Made by a program: the position numbers and the translations under genes. Under the pieces are notes generated by a model. It worked only from the letters and a program-made list of their open reading frames with translations, was not told the origin of the DNA and did no database searches. A DNA stretch of 64,000 nt. Origin: Thermodesulfobacteriota bacterium (GTDB lineage Bacteria; Desulfobacterota; BSN033; WVXP01; G020346125). Each line of letters opens with the position of its first letter. Within the stretch, counting starts at the first letter, position 1. Of this stretch, positions 2,714-57,166 are shown one piece after another. The stretch lies in contig JBGVTJ010000241.1 of assembly GCA_041862515.1 (NCBI GenBank), positions 1,685 through 65,684 on the forward strand, given 5' to 3'.

Positions 2714-2729
2714 ATGTTTTTAGCGAAAG

Positions 2730-2935
2730 TCTTGAGTACTTCATTCTCCCTTCACATCAATGCCTCCGAAGTGACCCTTCTAGGGTCCGCAGGCGGGGAA
2801 TACTTGCCCCTTCAGGCCTCTAAAGGGCCGGCCTTCCCCTTTCCTTCGGCTCTGCTCAGGACAAGCTCTGCTTACCCTCGGTGGGTACCCTACTTCTCCA
2901 GCAGACTGCGCTCAGGGACAACGGAGCACTCAAGA
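2730..2935 (+). ncRNA. Copy A of a ~210-nt structured repeat element (candidate structured RNA) closed by a ~20-bp terminal helix
   Basis: Core is strongly similar to the minus-strand copy at 55681..55910; a compensatory base-pair change occurs in an internal hairpin (GGCC-loop-GGCC versus AGCC-loop-GGCT); terminal helix tcttgagtac / gcactcaaga. Confidence 0.45.
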
Positions 2936-2961
2936 GAACTAAAGAAACCAAACAAACAAAA

Positions 2962-2994
2962 TAAACGAGATAAACCATCTAAACGTTCTAAACG
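2962..2994 (+). promoter_or_regulatory. Four direct TAAAC(G/C) repeats with exact 9-nt spacing just upstream of the aminotransferase RBS
   Basis: TAAACG at 2962, TAAACC at 2971, TAAACG at 2980 and 2989; the RBS GAGGAG and the ATG at 3006 follow. Confidence 0.25.
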
Positions 2995-3005
2995 AGGAGA
3001 TTGCC

Positions 3006-4382
3006 ATGGAGAGAGAAAAGGTTGCACCGTTCATAAAGGTTACCCCTCCCGGCCCAAATGCGCGCAAATGGGCTCAATTTCATAAAAAGCATGCCGCTCA
3101 TTCAACGTATTTCTACGATTTTGTTTGGGATCGATCTAAACCAGCCATTGGGCCATTCTGTACGGATGTAGATGGCAATATCATCATGGATTTCGTTAGC
3201 CATGTGGCGAGCTCTCCGCTGGGCTACAACCATCCCGTTCTTGTCGAAACGGCGAAGAAAATCGCCGCAATTGACCCGGATCGATATGCCGGGACCGACT
3301 TCATCGGCGCCTTCGGCGAAGATCCCAGCAACTGTCCCATCCCGACCCCTTCCCACCTCCACCACAAGCTCATGGAGATCTCCCAACAATTCGGTTTCAA
3401 CAGCGCCTTCTTATCCAATTCCGGTGCGGAGGCGGTTGAGAACGCCATCAAGATCTGTTACGACTACCGTCGAAACCATGGATATGGCTTCTGCTTTTAC
3501 GGGGCATTCCACGGACGAACCTTGGGGGCCCTCTCCCTCAATCGGAGCAAGAAGGTTCACCGGGATTGGTATCCCGAAATCCCCAAGATCGTGGAGCTCC
3601 CCTTCTGTCGTTGCCGAAAAGGCTGCGACTGTGGTTGGAAGATATACTCCATCCGAAGGAAAGGCGTGATCAGCCGTCTGGCCCAAGTCCTCGACCCCGA
3701 TATCGGTCTTATCGACCCGGAGGAGGTGGCCTATATCATTATCGAGCCCATCCTGGGTGAAGGAGGATATGATATAGCCAATCCCGAGTTTATCCGGGAA
3801 GTGGCCGAGATTGCTCACCGCGAGGAAATCCCACTGATCGCGGACGAAATCCAATCCGGATTAGGGCGTACGGGAAAGTGGTGGGCTGTGGAACATTTCG
3901 GCGTGGTACCAGACATCATAACCTCTGCCAAGGCCTTGCGGGTGGGCGCTACCATTGGGAAGAGCACGCTCTTTCCCCGAGAGGAGAGGAGGATTTCCTC
4001 GACATGGGGCGAGGGCAATGCCATCAGCTCAGCCGTGGGCTATCAAATCATTCAGACCATCCAGGAAGAGGATTTGCTCAAGAATGCGGAGGAGATGGGA
4101 AACTACTTCCTCGCCGGTTTACGCCAACTCCAATCCCGGTTCCCCGTGATCCACGATGTTCGAGGTCTCGGGCTCATGGACGCCATCTCGGTAGAGACCG
4201 ATGACCTGCGGAACCGAGTGATTCGAAATGCCTTACAAAAGGGGTTACTGGTAACATCGTGCGGGTTCGAATCAATCCGCTTTCTCCCTCCCCTCAACGT
4301 AACCCAGAGGGAGATCGATATCGCCTTGAACATCCTCGAAGATGTCTTTTCAGAAATAGTAACCGAGCCGTCGTTACCATAA
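3006..4382 (+). CDS. Class III PLP-dependent aminotransferase (omega-amino acid / lysine-6 aminotransferase-like)
   Basis: [11 protein letters not shown] motif, PLP lysine in ITSAKAL, 458 aa; RBS GAGGAG. Confidence 0.85.
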
Positions 4383-4422
4383 GCTGTAAGGGGGAAGATG
4401 ACTTCTGCCGAAAGGAGGAGCA

Positions 4423-4935
4423 ATGGATCTTTCACAGTTCGAGGAGATGGAGATACCAGCCTTCAAGAGCTACATCGAATTTCTGCTGTGGCACTACCGG
4501 GTGGTGGATGCCTTCTGGTTCATCTACGTCGGCGAGGAGTTCGATCAACAGACAGCGGAACGAATCAACGAACGAGTATGGGGGAGGGTGGCTGGAATGG
4601 CCGCGAGGGACCTGATTCGGCGCTTTCATATCGAGGAAAAGGGACTCCAGGGGTTCGTCAAGGCCTTAAAATACTTCCCCTGGCATATCCTGGTGGGCTA
4701 TCAGATCCATGAGGGGGAGGACGAGGTAATTATAGATGTTCCCAGTTGTCCCACCCAGGAGGCACGGCTGAAACGGGGACTGGGTGAATTTGTCTGTAAG
4801 GAGATGCACCGGGGAGAATTCACAAATTTTGCCCGGGAGATCGATGAGCGAATTCAGGTCGAGTGCCTCTTCGCCCCCCCTGATCCCCATCCCGACGACA
4901 TGTTCTGCAAATGGAGGTTTACCCTCGAGAAATGA
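4423..4935 (+). CDS. Hypothetical protein (170 aa) with a [11 protein letters not shown] motif
   Basis: Clean ORF with coding-like composition; no family confidently recognised. Confidence 0.45.
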
Positions 4936-5014
4936 GAGGGATGAGGAAAAACCATGGCCAAAGCCTGTGGTGGCAAGAGGGGAGGGTGGGGGCAGTACTT
5001 GTAGGGGTTTCATC

Positions 5015-5866
5015 ATGGTTATCATGCCGGGGCATGTCGGTGAATCAGTTCATGGTGCTTCCCCGGGGGGCGGCCATGAATCGGCTCAAAAAGGGCCATT
5101 ACGGATTACCCTCTCCATGCGGACGAGGCAAGGAAAACTAGCCCGGGCAGAGGGTTTTTATACCCGCTATCTGGGGTTGGGTGATAGCATAGCCATTGAT
5201 GAATATGCTGGAGGACCCGGATGTGGGGCCATATCCCTTTTCTACCGCAATAAAGATGAGATCTACCCCGAATTCAAGGGGAAGGATCTCCGAACCCTCT
5301 ATCCGGGAATCGATCTGCATTCCGTGGCCTCCGATGGTGGGACTTCCAGCAGCGTTTTAGGGGAACAACTTCCAGCCTTGCCTCCCAGAGGCGACGAACC
5401 AACGATTGTCACCTTAACGGTTGGGGGGAACGATTTTGTCTCCTCCCTGGGCCCAGGAGGGGCTATTGGCCCCGGTGCGGTAGAGGATTTCCGCTCGAAT
5501 CTCACGAGGATCCTTGAGGTCCTCCGTGAACGCTACCCCAACTGCACCATCATCCTGGGGACTATCTATGATCCGACGGATGGAGTTGGTGATCTGGGTA
5601 TACCAGAGGTGGACGTCCGGGAGGCCTATAACCTCTTTCACGCTTTTAACAGGGCTATCCTGGATTTGGGAAAGAGCTATGGCGCACAAATCGCGGACAT
5701 ATATTCCCACTTTCTGGGCCACGGATCCCACCATGGAGATCCAAACAATCCCCATTATTGTCCCGGGGATCCTTCTTACTGGTTTGTCCAGGAGATTGAG
5801 CCCAATGCTCGCGGGGCCCACGAAGTCCGCCGGAAATTCTGGGAAGCCCTGAAGAGAAGGCGTTAG
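5015..5866 (+). CDS. SGNH/GDSL family hydrolase
   Basis: GDSL block LGLGDSIA and block III TVGGNDF; an internal start is chosen because the upstream part of the ORF (from 4784) overlaps the preceding gene. Confidence 0.6.
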   Translation: MVIMPGHVGESVHGASPGGGHESAQKGPLRITLSMRTRQGKLARAEGFYTRYLGLGDSIAIDEYAGGPGCGAISLFYRNKDEIYPEFKGKDLRTLYPGIDLHSVASDGGTSSSVLGEQLPALPPRGDEPTIVTLTVGGNDFVSSLGPGGAIGPGAVEDFRSNLTRILEVLRERYPNCTIILGTIYDPTDGVGDLGIPEVDVREAYNLFHAFNRAILDLGKSYGAQIADIYSHFLGHGSHHGDPNNPHYCPGDPSYWFVQEIEPNARGAHEVRRKFWEALKRRR

Positions 5867-5897
5867 AAGGTTAGCCCTGAGGCTTAAAGCCTCGTTC

Positions 5898-6281
5898 TTA
5901 CGAGAGAGGCAAGACAGGTTGGAATACCTCGCACTGTCGGCACATCTTCATCTTCTTCCGCCAGCTTTCTTGCACCTCGCCTTGACAGATCGTACCATTG
6001 ATAAACCAGCAAAGATGCCCACTTTGAAATTCCCATGCCGGGCAATTTCGCCTCATCTCCATGGGACACTTTCGTATCACCCAACAGGGCTTGTTCCCCT
6101 CATTATGCAATCTCTTCATCGCCAGAAGGAAGAGCGCCTGTCGTTCAATATGCACAGGAATGTTTCTCCATCCCTGCTCAAAACTCTGTACAGATTTAGA
6201 GGAAACCCCCAGTAACTGTGCCATTTGGTTTTGAGTCTTTCCCAGATGGCCTCGAATTTGGGAAAACTCCTTTTTATCCAT
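5898..6281 (-). CDS. XRE-family HTH protein with a C-terminal Cys/Trp-rich (CW-type) putative zinc-binding domain
   Basis: N-terminal HTH (QNQMAQLLGVSSKSVQSFEQG); C-terminal CWVIRKC...CPAWE...CWFINGTIC...CRQC. Confidence 0.6.
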   Translation of the reverse strand: MDKKEFSQIRGHLGKTQNQMAQLLGVSSKSVQSFEQGWRNIPVHIERQALFLLAMKRLHNEGNKPCWVIRKCPMEMRRNCPAWEFQSGHLCWFINGTICQGEVQESWRKKMKMCRQCEVFQPVLPLS

Positions 6282-6614
6282 TTAAAATCTCCCGCTCGTC
6301 TTTACGCATTATACCACAATGTGGCTCAATGTAAAGGGTTTCATCCCTTTCTCTCGGGAATGCCGGTAGATCTGCAAGTTCGTATTCAGGTATCTCAATC
6401 TCGTGGGGATCATTCGGCAGGCATTCCTACGGATGAACAACCTCCTCAAACATTTCACACCCTATGACAAGGCTGTCATTTTTCGGTAGACCGAGATGCC
6501 CCTAACGGGGTTTGAACACCATTAACTTTCTCTTGAAAAGAAATCGGACAATGATATTCTGGGATAGGAACACTGATGCTGGTGTCATGGTCTTAATGAT
6601 GAGGGGGTGACGAT

Positions 6615-7916
6615 ATGAATACAGTCGAAAAGTACGAGAAATATGTTAATACCAGCATGGTGGAGAAGATACAGCCCATAGTGATTTCGAGGGCCAAGGG
6701 GGCAACGATTACAGATACTGAGGGGAAGGACTATATCGATTGTTTTTCAGGGATAGCGGTGATTAATGCTGGCCACTGTAATGAGCAAGTAGTCCAGGCA
6801 GCCAAGGCTCAGATGGACAGATTGGTTCACTGCTGCTCCTATGTCTACTATTCCCAACCGACTGGGGACTTAGCTGAGAAGTTGGCCGAAATAACATCCG
6901 GAAGATTGCAGAAGAGCTTTTTTGGCAATGGAGGAGCGGAGGCAATTGAGGGGGCCTTGAGGCTTGCCAAGCAATTTACGGGGAGGACGGAATTTATTGC
7001 CCTTCAGGGCTCCTTCCATGGCCGGTCCTATGCGGCGCTGAGCGTGACGGGCAACAATGCGAGGAAGAGAAGGGGAGGGCCTTACATGGTAGGGTGTACA
7101 TTCCTGCCTGCCCCATACTGTTACCGATGTTTCTTTGAATTGGAGTACCCCCAGTGCCACTTGAGGTGTGCACGGGCTCTGGAGGATATTATCAGGTTCA
7201 ATACATATGACAGCGTTGCTGGCTTCATTGCAGAGCCTATACTCGGAGAGGGAGGGATCATTACTCCCCCGGATGACTACTTCTTGGAGATCGAAAAGAT
7301 ATTGAAAAAGCATGAACTTCTCCTCATTGTCGATGAGGTACAGACAGGGTTTTGTAGAACCGGCCAGATGTTTGGCATTGAGCACTATGGAGTAGAACCA
7401 GACATCATGGTCATGGCCAAGGGGATTGCGGATGGGTTTCCCTTGAGTGCCTTTATCGCAAGGGAAGAGGTAGCTGATTCGTTTAAGCCTGGGGATCACT
7501 TGTCGACCTTTGGAGGTAACCCCGTCTCGTGTGCCGCATCCCTTGCCAATATTGAATTCATGTTAGAAACCAACTTGGCCTCTCAAACCCTTGAAAAAGG
7601 AGCATTCTTGAAGGAAGAGCTTGAAAAGCTAGCGAAACGACATGAGGTCATAGGGGAAATTCGCGGGAAGGGGTTGATGGTGGGGATTGAACTGGTTCGG
7701 GGTCGGCACAAGACTCCGGCCAATACTGAAGGCAGTGAGATCAGAGATTTCTGTCGCGACAACGGATTACTTCCCGGATTGGGGGGTCTCTATGGGAATG
7801 TTCTCAGAATTCAACCGCCTCTGGTAATAACAGAGGAGGAGCTTCTTGGAGTGGTGAAAATCTTGGATTCGGCTTTTACAAGAGTATTGAATGATACTTC
7901 GAGCTCAACAACTTAG
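6615..7916 (+). CDS. Class III aminotransferase (aspartate aminotransferase family; beta-alanine/GABA-type)
   Basis: GGAEAIEGALRLAK, DEVQTGFCRTG, MVMAKG motifs; RBS GAGGGGG. Confidence 0.85.
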   Translation: MNTVEKYEKYVNTSMVEKIQPIVISRAKGATITDTEGKDYIDCFSGIAVINAGHCNEQVVQAAKAQMDRLVHCCSYVYYSQPTGDLAEKLAEITSGRLQKSFFGNGGAEAIEGALRLAKQFTGRTEFIALQGSFHGRSYAALSVTGNNARKRRGGPYMVGCTFLPAPYCYRCFFELEYPQCHLRCARALEDIIRFNTYDSVAGFIAEPILGEGGIITPPDDYFLEIEKILKKHELLLIVDEVQTGFCRTGQMFGIEHYGVEPDIMVMAKGIADGFPLSAFIAREEVADSFKPGDHLSTFGGNPVSCAASLANIEFMLETNLASQTLEKGAFLKEELEKLAKRHEVIGEIRGKGLMVGIELVRGRHKTPANTEGSEIRDFCRDNGLLPGLGGLYGNVLRIQPPLVITEEELLGVVKILDSAFTRVLNDTSSSTT

Positions 7917-8218
7917 ATGAGGGAGGGAACCACAGGAGGGTAATGTTCTCTGCAAAATAGGAATCTCGTGGAATTTCACTTCTGAATGAGATCTCATTCT
8001 GAATGCCCATTTGATTTATACACTGCAAATGTATGTTTGATATTGATTCTGGGTCAATGGAGAGTCAGTTCTTTCGAAGGTAAAGACTCGAAAAGAAAGC
8101 TACGTCTGTGATAGTCTAAAAACAGTAGAATTTGCCAATTCAACGGATGTTCTCCATGAATATGCAATCAGGAAGATTGCAGGGATTACTCATGTAGATC
8201 GGAGTGAGGAGGCAGGCT

Positions 8219-9685
8219 ATGGGTTCAGAGAGACTTAAGAATTTTATCAATGGTGAATGGGTTGATTCTGAATCAACGGAATATGGGGAGGTCCGAAATC
8301 CAGCGAGGGATACACTCTTGTGCCACGTTCCCATGTCCACAAAAGCGGAGGTCGACCGGGCCGTTCAGGCCGCGAAAAATGCCTTTCCGGAATGGAGAAA
8401 CACACCACCGGTTTCCAGGGCGAGATGTCTTCACAGGTTGAGAGAATTATTGGAGGAAAATTTCGATGAACTCAGTAGAGTTCAGACTACAGAACATGGA
8501 AAGACAATCGATGAATCCAGGGGGGAAACAAGGCGCGGAATTGAAATGGTAGAAGTCGCTACAGGAATTCCTTCATTGATGCTAGGTTATAACTTGGAGG
8601 ATATTGCGACAGATATCGATGAGTACTGTATTTACCAACCATTAGGAGTCTTTGGACATCTTGCCCCCTTTAACTTTCCGTTCATGGTACCGCTTTGGTA
8701 TCTACCATTTGCCATCGCTACGGGAAACACTTTCATCACAAAGCCATCACCGAGAGACCCCATGAGTCAGGTTGAGCTTTTCAAGCTTTTAGATGACGCC
8801 GGTATCCCGCCTGGTGTAGTTAACCTCGTCCACGGAGCAGCAGATGTGGCAAATTATTTGTTAGATCATCCAGACATCAAGGGAATAACGTTTGTCGGAT
8901 CCACAGCGGTAGGTAAACTCATCTACAAGAAATGCGGAGAGACCGGGAAGCGAGTCATTGCGCAGTGTGGTGCTAAGAACTATTTAGTAATACTGCCGGA
9001 TGTGGACCTAGATAGTGCTATACCGAGCCTGATGACCTCTTTTTTTGGCAATACGGGGCAACGATGTCTGTCAGGGGCCAACGCAGTTGTTGTAGGAGAT
9101 AGTGATACATTCTACAAACGGTTTGTGGATGAATTCGTGGAGGCGGCCTCGAAAATAAGGGTTGGTGATGGGCTTGATGAAACCGTTCAAATGGGCCCTT
9201 TGCAAACATTGGAATCAAAAAAGAGAGTTATAGGATTTATAGAGAAAGGCATAGAAGCGGGGGCAGAGCTCCTTCTCGATGGCAGAGAATTGAACCTCGT
9301 GGGAGATGTCCCTGAAACGTGTTTCCTTAATCCAACCGTCTTCGGAAATGTTACGCCAAGCATGACCATTGGCAAGGAGGAAATCTTTGGCCCTGTGGCG
9401 AATATTATGAGAGCTGGGGATTTGGAGGAAACCATAGAGATGATTCATAGCAATCCCTATGGTAATGCCGCTTCGATTTATACCAGCAGCGGTAAACTGG
9501 CCAGAAAGTTCCAGCATGACGTCATGTGCGGTAATATTGGCGTAAATATTGGTATCGTTGCGCCTATGGCGTTCTTTCCGTTCGGCGGGATGAAAGATTC
9601 CTTCTTTGGAACCTTACACGGACAGGGCAGAGACGCTATTCGTTTCTTCACAGAAAGTAAGGTTGTAATCCAGAGGTGGTTTTGA
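8219..9685 (+). CDS. mmsA: CoA-acylating methylmalonate/malonate-semialdehyde dehydrogenase
   Basis: Aldehyde dehydrogenase fold with MmsA-type blocks (PLGVFGHLAPFNFPFMVPLWYLPFAIATGNTFITKPS, catalytic Cys in GQRCLS); the ATG at 8219 has RBS GAGGAGG, so the GTG at 8204 is unlikely. Confidence 0.85.
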   Translation: MGSERLKNFINGEWVDSESTEYGEVRNPARDTLLCHVPMSTKAEVDRAVQAAKNAFPEWRNTPPVSRARCLHRLRELLEENFDELSRVQTTEHGKTIDESRGETRRGIEMVEVATGIPSLMLGYNLEDIATDIDEYCIYQPLGVFGHLAPFNFPFMVPLWYLPFAIATGNTFITKPSPRDPMSQVELFKLLDDAGIPPGVVNLVHGAADVANYLLDHPDIKGITFVGSTAVGKLIYKKCGETGKRVIAQCGAKNYLVILPDVDLDSAIPSLMTSFFGNTGQRCLSGANAVVVGDSDTFYKRFVDEFVEAASKIRVGDGLDETVQMGPLQTLESKKRVIGFIEKGIEAGAELLLDGRELNLVGDVPETCFLNPTVFGNVTPSMTIGKEEIFGPVANIMRAGDLEETIEMIHSNPYGNAASIYTSSGKLARKFQHDVMCGNIGVNIGIVAPMAFFPFGGMKDSFFGTLHGQGRDAIRFFTESKVVIQRWF

Positions 9686-9686
9686 T

Positions 9687-10133
9687 ATGCAACTCAATAC
9701 AGCTTCAGCGGTCATTAGATTTGCCACAGAAGTCGAGGAAAAATCCGCAAAATTCTACGATGATTGTGCCAAGAGACATAGAGAAATTGCAGAGACCTTT
9801 CTCTCTTTTGTTAGGGAAAACAAGAAAAATGTGACGTTCGTGAAACGAGCTTATTACGGGGTAATTAGTGATGCCCTTGAGGCATGTTTTTCGTTTGAAG
9901 GTCTAAAGACTGACGAGTTTCTCTTTAAGGCTGAATTTGATGAAAAGGCTCATCTTTCTGATATTCTAGAGATGAGTTTGCAGATGGAGGATAAAATTCA
10001 AAAATTCTATCAAAAAGCCGGGGAGTCATCAGAAAAACTCTTGGCTGATGTGCCTAGAGCCTTAAAAAAGATTGCCGACAAGAGGAAGGAACGGAAGAAT
10101 GAATTAGCGTCTCTTCTTGATGAGATTAGATAA
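9687..10133 (+). CDS. Hypothetical helical protein, possibly a ferritin-like four-helix bundle
   Basis: 148-aa ORF that overlaps the mmsA stop (translational coupling); no family confidently recognised. Confidence 0.45.
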   Translation: MQLNTASAVIRFATEVEEKSAKFYDDCAKRHREIAETFLSFVRENKKNVTFVKRAYYGVISDALEACFSFEGLKTDEFLFKAEFDEKAHLSDILEMSLQMEDKIQKFYQKAGESSEKLLADVPRALKKIADKRKERKNELASLLDEIR

Positions 10134-10136
10134 GTG

Positions 10137-10168
10137 AAACTCCCCGACCAAAGGTCGGGGAGTTTCAC
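10137..10168 (+). terminator. Perfect 15-bp stem hairpin immediately after the 9687..10133 gene (intrinsic terminator candidate, no strong U-tail)
   Basis: GTGAAACTCCCCGACC-AAAG-GTCGGGGAGTTTCAC. Confidence 0.55.
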
Positions 10169-10654
10169 TTAGAAGAATTTCTGCATAGTGGACAGAGATG
10201 ATAATGGTTGAGTGCGAGAAAATTCATGGGTTAACGAAGACTTACTCAATGTGAGAATGATTGTCAGAGAGGGTGGAAAGGCTCGGCTCTCTCCTATGCT
10301 ATTAAAATGAAAAGATCCATAGGAGTCGATAGAAACCCATGTCCTGCCTTCGGATCCAGGATGGAATATGGTTCTTAAGGGATAAGACCTTCTATCCAAT
10401 TTCAGTTGGTATCTGACCTACATGCCATATCAGAAAGAAAGGCAAAACCAGATTATTGGAAAATCCATAACGTACGATTTTAACCTCTCAGGAGCATCCA
10501 ACTCGGCACTATCGCGCCTGAGTTACCGACGAGGGAAACTTGACAGCTCATACTCAACCTTTTTATGCTATCCAAAGAAATTCATCCAGTGGTTGAAGCC
10601 GATATTTCAATGGTGGTTTTATCCCCACGTTTAGACATCCCTTTTTCCAAAAGG

Positions 10655-12177
10655 ATGGAATTATACCGGCTGACCAGGCGAGAGTTCATCAAGGGGGTTG
10701 TCTCAACTGGAGCTTCTGTCTATGTAAGCGGATTGGTTGGCGTCAAATAACCTCTTTCTCGCGAGCATACATTCCGAATTTTCCGAGTAAGAGAATGCCC
10801 GGTCCATGACGGTCAACTCCGTCATTGAGGCCTCGATACCTTGTTAGACCTGCTTGCGGAAAACGGGATGAAGTTCTGCCGAACCGATGGTGGACATCCT
10901 TGGGGAGGGCCGGCAGGTATCATCGATCTCAACGACGTGGTACTCATCAAGGTGAACTGCCAGTGGAAGTGTCGCGGGACAGCAAACACCGACGTCCTGC
11001 GAGGATTGATTTATCGGATTCTTCAACCCCCCGACAGCTTTGATGGAGAGGTAGTGATCTTCGAAAATGCCCAGGGCGTGGGAAGCTTCGACGGGTGCCG
11101 GCGGCATGGGGGGTACTATTCTGATTGGCCTGAAATAGACAATGGAATCTATGCAAACGCTGAGGAGGAGACTATCCTTACCGTGGATTATCTTGGAAAC
11201 ACCGTTTTTAAGGACCAGCACGTAATTCCTCCCTTCTCGATCCCATCCGATCCAACTTCATTTCAGACTCGGATCACTTGACTGACGGCTACCGAAGAAT
11301 ATCAGATTTCTCTTACCCTTGTTTTACTTTTGCGGGAGGGTACCGGAATAGAATTACGGGAAGGAATCTGGAAGGGTTCAGGATACAATACTCATCTAAA
11401 GTTCATCAACATCCCCGTTCTGAAGACACACGAAGGTACTGGCATAACGGGGATTCTGAAACATAGCTACGGCATACTTTCCATGGTCGATGGTTATTCA
11501 GGCATCCGTCATTACAGTGAGTCGGGCACGCAATACGGGAAAATGTGGAGTCTTGTGAGGATTCCTGATTTGAACATTTTCGACTGTATCTGGGTGAGCC
11601 ATGAGAATCTAGGGGGCTACCCACCGGAAACGACTTACCGCACCAATATCCTGCTTGGTGGAACCAATCCGGTCGCGCTCGATTACTACGGGAGTAAGCA
11701 CGTTCTCTTACCCCTTGGTGGCAGCAGAGCGCATGAACACGACCCCGATTCGTTTTCCGGCCTCTTTAATCACCTCACCGGGGCGAGCGACTTCATCAAC
11801 GCCCGCGGCGGGATCGGAGGCGAACCTACCAATGTGGCGGACGATGATATTGAGGTCATCTCGGCGTCGGCTATTTCTTCAGCTGAAGGTGGTTCAACTG
11901 AAGGAGGTAGCGGGAGTGGATGTTTCATTGCAACGGCCGCCTATGGGTCCCGTATGGTAAAAGACGTGAAAGTTCTGGAAGGGTAAGAGATAAGTATCTT
12001 TTGACGAACCGCGTAGGAAGAGCTTTCGTTTCCTTCTATTATAAACAGAGCCCGAAACTAGCCAACCATATCTCAAGTCGCCCTCTCCTGCGAAGCATTG
12101 TCAGGGCTGGTCTTTATCCCTTGGTTCAGGTCGGCGGACTGGTAATCGAAACAGATAAAGATAGAAGGCAGGGTTAG
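10655..12177 (+). pseudogene. Decayed gene: Tat signal peptide + DUF362-like domain + Ser/Gly linker + CFI-box C-terminal domain, interrupted by three in-frame stops and one G-run frameshift
   Basis: MELYRLTRREFIKG Tat motif at 10655; TAA at 10748, TGA at 10826 and TGA at 11279 lie in the same frame as the DUF362-like segments (10841..11281, 11330..11986); GCFIATAAYGS at 11923..11955; the CFI-box continuation (RDKYLLTNRVGRAFVSFYYKQSP...) is in another frame after the GGG run at 11966. Confidence 0.5.
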
Positions 12178-12198
12178 CAATAACCCCTCTCTTTTTTC

Positions 12199-12227
12199 TT
12201 GTTAATCTTGTTCTACTCTGTTATCAT
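12199..12227 (+). promoter_or_regulatory. Sigma-70-like promoter candidate (TTGTTA-17-TATCAT) upstream of the PilZ-sigma4 gene
   Basis: Hexamer spacing read from the sequence; about 220 nt upstream of the ATG at 12445. Confidence 0.3.
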
Positions 12228-12444
12228 AGATAAATACTGAAACCCTATAATATCCGTTAATGTTTGGCAGAAAGCCACGGGTCTAGCGGGGGAGATCCAT
12301 GAGCTTCCAATACACAGCCGGGTTGCCGAAGTAAATAGGTGGCTCGGCTTTCTCATTGGCGTAAATAAACTAGCAACACTACCCCCGATTTCATGATCGC
12401 CCGTATTTCGGGCTCTGAAACCTGATTAATAGGAGGAAATATAC

Positions 12445-13101
12445 ATGCCCGATAAGCGGAAATTTTCTCGCTTTCCCGTGACGGAAACGGTTATTTGCTC
12501 CCGTTATGGGAGAGAGGTGACCATGCGAACCCTAGATATCAGTCTTGGAGGACTGAAACTAGAGGCCAATTTCGATCTAAGGGTTGGTGAGTCCATGATC
12601 TTTTCAATTTTTACCAATAACACGAGAATAAATTGCAAGGGAAAGATCCTTAAAATAGAAGAATTTGGAAATAAGGTTCAAGCCAGGTTGTGTTTCGCTC
12701 CACCCTCGGACTGGGAATATGGGAAACTGTCTGATTATCTAAACGGCCTTTCTCGGAGACCCTTCCAAAGACGGGTAGTTGGTGACCCGGCTCTATTGCT
12801 TCGGAGAGCACTCAGGCGTGCAATGATGAAGGGAGGAAAGTGGGTAAAAAATATTTTCGACGGAAGAGAAGATGAGAAGCTGGAGCAGGTGAATTCATGG
12901 TTGGAATTACTGCCGGATATGGAGAGAACGGTGATTACCCTTCGTTTTGGTTTGGACGGGGAGGATCCTCTCACATCGGAATCCATAGGGAAACGCTTTG
13001 GCTTGCCCCCGGAAAGGACTCGTCAAATCGAAACGGAGGCCATAGAGAAACTCCGAAAGATCAGCAAAAAGAAAGAGATCTACTTGGATGATATAATCTG
13101 A
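12445..13101 (+). CDS. PilZ domain fused to a sigma-70 region 4 (ECF-type HTH) DNA-binding domain
   Basis: PilZ motifs RKFSR (RxxxR) and DISLGG (DxSxxG) at the N-terminus; C-terminal ERTVITLRFGLDGEDPLTSESIGKRFGLPPERTRQIETEAIEKLRK is a typical sigma-70 region 4; RBS AGGAGG. Confidence 0.7.
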   Translation: MPDKRKFSRFPVTETVICSRYGREVTMRTLDISLGGLKLEANFDLRVGESMIFSIFTNNTRINCKGKILKIEEFGNKVQARLCFAPPSDWEYGKLSDYLNGLSRRPFQRRVVGDPALLLRRALRRAMMKGGKWVKNIFDGREDEKLEQVNSWLELLPDMERTVITLRFGLDGEDPLTSESIGKRFGLPPERTRQIETEAIEKLRKISKKKEIYLDDII

Positions 13102-55680: not shown

Positions 55681-55910
55681 CAATGCTGGAGTTTCCTGAG
55701 TTTCTGGGCGAACACCGTTGTCCATGAACGTAAATTGCTGGAGAAGCTGGGGACCCATCCAGGGTGAGCAGGCTTCGACGTGAGCTCAGCCGAACGTAAG
55801 GGGAAAGCCAGCCCTTTAGAGGCTGGAAGGGGTAAGTATTCCCCGCCTGCGAACCCCGAAAGGGTCACTTCGGAAGCACTGAAGCGAAGGGACAGCGGTG
55901 TTCACTTATG
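55681..55910 (-). ncRNA. Copy B of the ~210-nt structured element, with a 14-bp terminal helix and its own promoter-like sequence (TTGTAA-16-TATATT at 55919..55946)
   Basis: Core homologous to copy A (2730..2935) with compensatory changes; terminal helix gugaacaccgcugucc / ggacaacgguguuc. Confidence 0.45.
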
Positions 55911-56129
55911 AAAAATAAAATATACTTTGTAATCAAAAGGTTACAAAAATATTCCGCATAAAAATCAGGAAACTCCAAATAACAATGGTCTTGTTACGGA
56001 AGAATATTTTTGATTGACAAACAGTTTTTTCGACCTCATTGTATGAAGGTCGTCTCCGTTGCAATGATCCAACTCCTGTATTGCTTTAATAATCTGATCT
56101 CGAGTGAAGAATCTCAGAGGAAGTTCGAT

Positions 56130-57166
56130 ATGAGAGGGGTAAAAATCATCCAATACGGGGTCGGTGCAATGGGTTCTCTGATGGTAAAGACGGCCTTAAA
56201 GAGAACGCGCCTGCGATTCGTGGGGGGCATCGATCAGGGGAAAAAGGGGGGGATGGATTTGGGAGCGGCGATGGGTCTCCACGGTAAATTGGGGATTTCG
56301 ATTTCGGGGGAACCCCAAACCTTATTGAGCAATACCGATGCGGATATCGTTCTCCATGCCACCGCATCTTTTTTCGATGAGATATACCCCCAAAATCGCC
56401 ATGGCCATTGAAGCGCGCATGAGCGTCATCTCCATTTGCGAGGAGTTAGCCTATCCTTGGCACCGAAATCCCGAACTTGCCAATAAGATCGACCGGCTGG
56501 CAGAGGAAAATGGTGTGATAGTGTTGGGACCCGGGGTAAACCCAGGATTTTCCTCGATACCCTCGTCATCCATTGCACCGGGTTATGTGCCGAAGTCAAA
56601 AGGATTACGGCCAAGCGGATGCGCGATTCTTCCCCTTATGGCCTAAGGTTCTGGATCGCCGAGGACTGGGGCTCTCCTTTGACGAGTGGAAAAAAAGGGT
56701 ATCTGAAAAGAGGATAACCGGCCATATCGGGTCCCATGAATCGATGAGGATGATCGGGGCCAGTTTGGGGTGGGATTTGGATGAAACCGTTGAAATGCCG
56801 ATTGAACCCATCATTGCCGAGGTTAGCATTGAACTCCCTTATGTGAGGATCGAAAGGGGGACCATATGCGAATATAACCAGAAGGCCTATGCCCTCATGG
56901 CGCGCGGGAAGGTGATTCTCTTTGAGAATGAAGGAAGGGTATATGGGGAGGGTGAAGAACATCATACGGAAGATTCCGTGCATATCGAGGGGAATCCCGA
57001 GATCAAGCTCACCATAAGGCCGGGACTATCGGGCGACGTTAGCAGCTCATCCATGGCCGTCAACGCCATCGCACAGGTTATGGCTACGCGACCCGGGTTG
57101 GTCAGCATGAAGGATCTCCCCAATCCATCAGCCCTGATGGACACAAGGAGATACTTTCACCATTGA
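56130..57166 (+). pseudogene. DapB-like NAD(P)H amine dehydrogenase (2,4-diaminopentanoate dehydrogenase family) interrupted by three 1-nt indels at homopolymer runs; probably intact in vivo
   Basis: Family blocks (GVGAMGS..., NGVIVLGPGVNPGF, FLDTLVIHCTGLCAEV, ITGHIGSHES, EGNPEIKLTIRPGLSGDVSSSSMAVNAIAQVM...PGLVSMKDLP) are spread over three frames; frame switches at the C5 run 56387-56391, the T4 run 56548-56551 and the C4 run 56632-56635. Confidence 0.7.

Follow-up and report, generated by a model that had tools for sequence, protein, structure and literature searches.

Domain architecture of the locus

The stretch of DNA analysed here (the window) is 64,000 nucleotides long and comes from a Thermodesulfobacteriota bacterium (assembly GCA_041862515.1, contig JBGVTJ010000241.1). 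On its forward strand, positions 10655–12177 contain the whole remnant of one gene, which encodes a Tat signal, a DUF362 core, a Ser/Gly linker and a CFI-box-CTERM domain. Translation from the ATG at 10655 gives MELYRLTRREFIKG... and meets three stop codons, TAA at 10748–10750, TGA at 10826–10828 and TGA at 11279–11281, before the frame closes at a TAA at 11984. The remainder of the C-terminal domain is encoded in frame 10657 (...VRDKYLLTNRVGRAFVSFYYKQSP...), up to a TAG at 12175–12177. Over the remnant as a whole, the coding frame passes from 10655 to 10657, back to 10655, and once more to 10657.

The signal region (10655–10747, +) contains the twin-arginine motif TRREFIKG at 10673–10696, corresponding to residues 7–14. 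The motif fits the pattern [ST]RRxF[IVL]K, which is found near the N-terminus in 98 of 120 homologues among the matches listed, and the peptide also has a moderately hydrophobic h-region (IKGVVSTGASVYVSGLVGV, hydropathy 1.34). The twin-arginine motif noted in the initial annotation is thus confirmed. The TIGR01409 profile (TAT_signal_seq) did not match the window's peptide at E ≤ 1; this model is short and weak, and the result is no argument against a Tat signal. It is matched by 14 of 64 intact homologues at E ≤ 0.001.

Profile searches, which the initial annotation had proposed as a check, identified both of the domains that it had named. Pfam DUF362 (PF04015) matches positions 11402–11692 (+) with a score of 45.1 bits against a cutoff of 24, covering profile positions 102–198 of 200, and is present in all 120 homologues among the matches listed. 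Two DUF362-like segments had been described: a DUF362 match is indeed present, as a single Pfam stretch, and the N-terminal half is part of the same fold. The core is predicted to adopt a LarA-like fold (clan CL0471). The LarA superfamily consists of nickel-pincer nucleotide enzymes. A Foldseek search of the PDB gave weak LarA matches only, with E values of 0.04 or worse, and a profile search of PDB sequences with the protein gave no match. Identity to members of the LarA lactate racemase superfamily (DUF2088; PDB 5huq, 4nar, 9eia and 7s91) is just 10–12%, and LarA enzymes are cytoplasmic, whereas the DUF362 family described here has a Tat signal together with a tag at the C-terminus. Papers on DUF362 report its clan membership and its co-occurrence with CBM9 and dockerin domains, and nothing further.

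The Ser/Gly linker was also correctly recognised: translation and homologue alignment place a Ser/Gly/Ala-rich stretch, SASAISSAEGGSTEGGSGSG, at 11861–11920 (+). Behind it, the CFI-box-CTERM domain (GCFIATAAYGS..., 11921–12126, +) matches NCBIfam NF041770 with 86.2 bits against a cutoff of 40, over the entire model (1–69 of 69). This full-length match appears only when the frames are joined at 11979/11980, and with this joining the proposed CFI-box assignment holds. As in other CFI-box-CTERM proteins, the whole model is matched at the extreme C-terminus behind a Gly/Ser-rich linker; unlike them, the domain here is cut by a frameshift.

The CFI-box domain is carried by 32 of 64 homologues. Half of the DUF362 homologues thus bear the tag, which is found also on short proteins of 72–148 residues; four short CFI-box proteins are named by their source as Chloroflexi/Dehalococcoidia or Omnitrophota MAGs. 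The domain alone, used as query, returned 34 short proteins only, and these are little guide to the range of tagged proteins. Two ORFs of 72–74 residues (P0121 and P0122) consist only of the CFI-box domain and are 71–75% identical to the domain of the query (P0001); these could be the C-terminal remains of DUF362–CFI genes that have been frameshifted in a similar way in other metagenomes. Long amphipathic helices are predicted for the domain. Neither the window's protein nor two of three intact homologues have within it a 19-residue segment with a Kyte–Doolittle hydropathy above 1.3, and in the remaining homologue (P0019) a weak peak reaches 1.26. A sorting or anchoring role, as proposed in the initial annotation, is implied only by the name of the domain. 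We found no mention of the CFI-box in the literature, and no gene neighbour or partner gene conserved across the 13 loci described below.

Homologues and an intact syntenic orthologue

In a large protein collection, 604 relatives were found, many of them intact, with lengths of 498–523 residues and identities of 64–74% over 96–99% of the query. The frame-corrected translation is 74–79% identical to intact homologues of ~500 residues. With the Tat-signal DUF362 proteins of Thermodesulfobacteriota, Aminicenantes and other sediment bacteria it shares full-length homology (55–79% identity), the N-terminal pattern [ST]RRxF[IVL]K and the motifs VLIKVNCQWKCRG and VLKTHxGTGITG, both of them invariant. 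This copy differs from them in having two nonsense codons, three 1-nt indels, a shortened 5′ end and 12 replacements at conserved positions.

A scan of GTDB species representatives gave 13 loci, of which the best (L002) is from a MAG described as an ‘uncultured Syntrophobacterales bacterium’, project ERP108616. This project sampled deep marine sediments (PMC8319310). In L002 the gene is a single uninterrupted ORF of 521 residues (L002:5515–7080), and the surrounding genes, encoding DUF6125, a GDSL lipase, a class-III aminotransferase, an aldehyde dehydrogenase and a 148-residue protein, are collinear with those of the window. The aldehyde dehydrogenases of the two contigs are 95% identical and the 148-residue proteins 91%. 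A tblastn search with the repaired protein as query found no second copy of the gene within the window.

The window has a coding density of 87%. TAA, TAG and TGA each end ordinary genes; stop-codon reassignment is therefore ruled out. Among nine neighbouring genes, Pfam analysis found no domain split across frames, five of the genes giving full-length matches and four none. The source genome is thus not generally eroding, although one further gene, at 56010–57166, is split over three frames (see below).

Stop codons and frameshifts

Comparison with an intact orthologue had likewise been proposed as a check, and a nucleotide alignment with the uninterrupted L002 gene places every lesion. The first stop codon, TAA at 10748–10750 (+), is a true nonsense codon produced by a C-to-T change from CAA (Gln). 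L002 has CAA at this position, and two independent contigs, L001 and L015 (described below), have TAA. In the homologue alignment the codon corresponds to the conserved Gln of GVKQTFS. The second, TGA at 10826–10828 (+), also arises by a C-to-T change, from CGA (Arg); CGA is present in L002 and in a further contig, L016, and TGA in L001 and L015. This column is variable in the homologues, being occupied by Arg, His or Gln and never by Cys.

The first frameshift lies at 11225/11226 (+), where the G of GTAAGTTCC in L002 is deleted between A11225 and T11226, in L001 and L015 as well as in the window. The site is not homopolymeric, and the deletion moves the coding frame from 10655 to 10657. A second frameshift, at 11346/11347 (+), is an extra A (CGGAATAG as against CGGATAG) that is private to the window, being missing from L001, L015, L002 and L016; it brings the frame back to 10655. 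Between these two opposite shifts (~11226–11346) the window encodes SSLLDPIRSNFISDSDHLTDGYRRISDFSYPCFTFAGGYR in the 10657 frame, where the homologues read SSYLLDPIRSNFISDSDHLTDGYRRISDVSYPCFTSAGGYRIELREG, and the frame used by the initial annotation around the TGA at 11279–11281 (+) has no alignment to homologues. This TGA is therefore an out-of-frame triplet and involves no mutation: the bases at 11279 are identical in the window, in the intact L002 and in L016, where they read His-Leu-Thr-Asp. Thus, of the three in-frame stops originally described, those at 10748 and 10826 are genuine nonsense codons and the third is outside the true frame. The accompanying argument that such interruptions are beyond run-length error applies to the two nonsense codons; the apparent third stop is a product of indels, of which the one at 11346/11347 is itself a change from A to AA.

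A third frameshift, the loss of one nucleotide at 11979/11980 (+), is also private to the window (window CTGGA-AGGG, L001 CTGGATCGGG, L002 CTGCAAAGGG) and moves the frame from 10655 to 10657. It had been attributed to slippage in a run of G. We conclude that it is not a G-run slip, because the GGG run is equally long in the window, L001 and L002 and the missing base is just 5′ of the run. Finally, the terminal TAG at 12175–12177 (+) is CAG in L002, whose stop comes two codons later; P0002 and L002 both end ...RRQGQQ. The TAG is thus a third C-to-T nonsense change, which costs two residues only.

The 5′ end has been remodelled. At 10649–10694 (+), between AAAAGGATGG and TTCATCAAGG, the window lineage is 41 nt shorter than L002, where the extra stretch contains a GGGGAG Shine–Dalgarno-like site and the ATG of a conserved MANKRK N-terminus. 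The exact junction of the difference is ambiguous. A replacement start codon in the same frame, the ATG at 10655, has AAGG immediately against it. The same 5′ form is present in L001, L015, L018 and L020. A look-up with the 148-residue neighbour gave three more short contigs, which end before 10748 and are informative on the 5′ form only. The 41-nt difference is probably a deletion in the window lineage, a direction that is read only from the MANKRK N-termini of the homologues.

A scan for promoters and terminators around the gene found sites no commoner than expected by chance. Directly 3′ of the 148-residue ORF there is a perfect 15-bp hairpin (GTGAAACTCCCCGAC...GTCGGGGAGTTTCAC) at 10134–10168 (+), which has no T-run and hence was missed by the simple scan. 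Its stem is kept in L002 while its loop differs, for which reason we consider it probably a terminator between the upstream operon and the pseudogene. A further intergenic stretch of 46 nt upstream of the pseudogene (~10204–10249) is present in the window and missing from L002.

Recurrence of the lesions in independent contigs

One of the relatives, P0026 (299 residues, 96% identical), led to the contig L001 from JGI metagenome 3300009034, which is 98.9% identical to the window over 2719–12795. L001 contains both nonsense codons (TAA and TGA) and lacks the same G, and has neither the extra A nor the loss at 11979/11980. We also scanned metagenome contigs with a pattern over the TGA site, in which the variable base was given as N, and found two more. 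L015, from another JGI metagenome (Ga0224501), is 98.2% identical to the window over 10550–11740 (1.19 kb); it too shows both nonsense codons and the deletion of G, without the extra A. L016, which is 99.7% identical to L002, retains CGA. Three assemblies that differ from each other by 1–2% thus have three disabling lesions in common, and these lesions are therefore inherited mutations. Exact-protein look-ups with the window's aldehyde dehydrogenase, with the fragments of 146 and 197 residues and with a neighbour of 217 residues gave no match.

The remaining two indels were examined by comparing the window with L001. Over 10 kb there are only two frameshifting differences between them, and both are in the 1.5-kb pseudogene (chance ~0.02). 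That both private indels fall inside the pseudogene is what neutral decay predicts.

Strong clustering is seen among the positions at which the window and L001 differ, with clusters at 11901–11980, 2746–2911, 5098–5318 and 12549–12747; the CFI-box region, for instance, has eight differences in 80 nt. This pattern points to patches of recombination, or to assemblies that mix strains, rather than to clock-like divergence.

Relaxed constraint on the remnant

The remnant is under relaxed selective constraint. Of 189 columns with at least 90% conservation among 118 homologues, 12 have a deviating residue only in the window and two only in L002 (sign test p = 0.006). The window's 12 replacements are S40F, Y75C, T110A, H125P, G128S, G139A, V181G, V219F, C294Y, D338N, G395A and N398D, of which Cys294Tyr falls in the GTQCGKMW motif. 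L015 has private changes of its own at conserved sites, and it retains the ancestral His125 and Gly128 that are lost in the window and L001. These replacements were consequently later than the inactivation, and decay went on after it.

Between the window and L002, dN/dS is 0.385 for the pseudogene, as against 0.14 for the aldehyde dehydrogenase gene, 0.22 for the 148-residue ORF and, on the opposite strand, 0.35 for a small ORF. Among members of the dead lineage, pN/pS ranges from 0.47 to 0.72, which fits neutrality (p = 0.22) and rejects an omega of ~0.15 (p = 0.004). The corresponding value for the pooled flanking genes is 0.23; counts are small, and the contrast with the pseudogene is not significant (Fisher p = 0.17).

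History of the gene and alternative explanations

We are highly confident that 10655–12177 is a genuine unitary pseudogene, and that it is fixed in a marine-sediment lineage of Syntrophobacterales-like bacteria. The central claim of the initial annotation, that this is a genuinely decaying gene and no artefact, is borne out by the intact 521-residue syntenic ORF, by lesions that recur in two independent contigs and by the replacement of conserved residues. In all of this the locus resembles ordinary bacterial unitary pseudogenes, with an intact syntenic orthologue in a sister lineage, several independent disabling lesions, relaxed constraint, and individual strains that keep gaining lesions; the remnant has no unusual feature.

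The following account, which covers what the gene once did, in what order it was damaged and the loss of its expression, is inferred. The ancestral gene would have encoded a protein of ~510 residues, comprising a Tat signal, a LarA-like DUF362 core, a Gly/Ser linker and a CFI-box domain, which was probably exported in folded form to the cell envelope. The ancestor that the window shares with L001 and L015 would then have gained the change of CAA to TAA at 10748, that of CGA to TGA at 10826 and the 1-nt deletion at 11225/11226. In the same lineage the 41-nt shortening, probably a deletion, would have affected the native ribosome-binding site and start codon. With translation of the Tat-signal part ending at codon 32, an exported product would presumably be impossible. 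Drift would have followed, replacing residues conserved in the family, and the window's own strain would have added the 1-nt indels at 11346/11347 and 11979/11980, the first of which happens to restore the 10655 frame. The remnant is full length except for 41 nt at the 5′ end, and its DNA is ~90% identical to the live copy; the inactivation is therefore fairly recent.

Sequencing or assembly error could account for some or all of the interruptions. If limited to the two indels private to the window, at 11346/11347 and 11979/11980, such error is unlikely though conceivable: the insertion is a run-length change, from A to AA, and the window does contain another gene split over three frames (56010–57166), with a C5A4 run at one junction, but none of 156 homopolymer runs of at least four bases in 8.4 kb of flanking sequence differs in length between the window and L001. 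That every interruption is an error in an otherwise intact gene is highly improbable, as two nonsense substitutions and a non-homopolymer deletion are identical in three independently assembled sequences, and errors would not explain the surplus of replaced conserved residues.

It might instead be proposed that the gene has been split, and that the C-terminal ORF, containing the C-terminal half of DUF362 and the CFI-box, is a working cytoplasmic protein. An ORF of 299 residues starting from TTG is open in L001, where it has been called as a gene (P0026); the window's version has 218 residues. Such a product would have neither a signal peptide nor half of the LarA-like fold, the window's strain has interrupted the ORF two further times, and the substitutions in the lineage fit neutrality and strike conserved residues, such as Cys294Tyr and Asp338Asn. 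We therefore regard a functional split gene as very unlikely. A broader proposal, which we consider similarly improbable, is that it was adaptive for one sediment Syntrophobacterales population to lose, throughout the lineage, an exported envelope protein that was LarA-like and may have had a cofactor, or that the C-terminal ORF has been kept as a new cytoplasmic protein.

The remaining alternative is that programmed recoding keeps the gene functional, whether by readthrough of stop codons, by selenocysteine insertion at TGA or by programmed frameshifting, and its chance of being right is negligible. One interruption is a TGA, with no locus-specific support for recoding. Against it, the window would need two readthrough events and three frameshifts to yield a full-length product, and homologues have Gln at the first stop and Arg, His or Gln at the second, without any Cys or Sec. 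In the sister lineage these sites are sense codons and the frame is unshifted, and hence there is no conserved recoding signal. An Rfam scan of the window gave no match, and so neither a SECIS nor a frameshift element, and TAA, TAG and TGA all act as normal terminators here.

Given that the remnant is very probably a pseudogene, we propose that it should be annotated as one pseudogene at 10655–12177 rather than as three or four short hypothetical ORFs; public gene calls in L001 split it into products of 61, 146 and 299 residues. It represents a clean and dated case of gene decay, in which two shared nonsense codons and one shared indel were followed by indels private to a strain. As an ordinary case within a known, uncharacterised family, its significance outside annotation is small. 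It does point to a widespread and uncharacterised architecture, in which a Tat signal and a C-terminal CFI-box tag flank a LarA-like DUF362 core.

Other features of the window

The second broken gene, at 56010–57166 (+), resembles that of 2,4-diaminopentanoate dehydrogenase. DapB_N is encoded in the ORF at 56010–56411 and DAP_DH_C in the ORF at 56573–57166, with a third frame (56338–56646) between them. The first junction is at a CCCCCAAAA run (C5A4) at ~56385–56393, and with one base fewer the sequence reads EIYPQIAMAIEA. Exact-protein look-ups found no independent contig for this gene, which may be a pseudogene or the result of a homopolymer error.

An intergenic element of ~190–210 nt occurs twice in the window, at 2745–2960 (+) and 55700–55915 (−), with ~86% identity between the copies. 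It is predicted to form a long stem (consensus −61 kcal/mol), in which three pairs show compensatory changes, and the L001 copy has the helix variant of the distant copy. The element has no match in Rfam; a structured repeat, a small mobile element and an undescribed RNA are all possible identities for it.

Downstream of the pseudogene, the gene at 12445–13101 (+) encodes a protein of 218 residues in which an N-terminal PilZ domain is fused to sigma-70 region 4. This uncommon architecture suggests a c-di-GMP-responsive DNA-binding protein. Just upstream of the gene, at 12436–12438, a 3-nt indel (GAA) distinguishes the window from L001.
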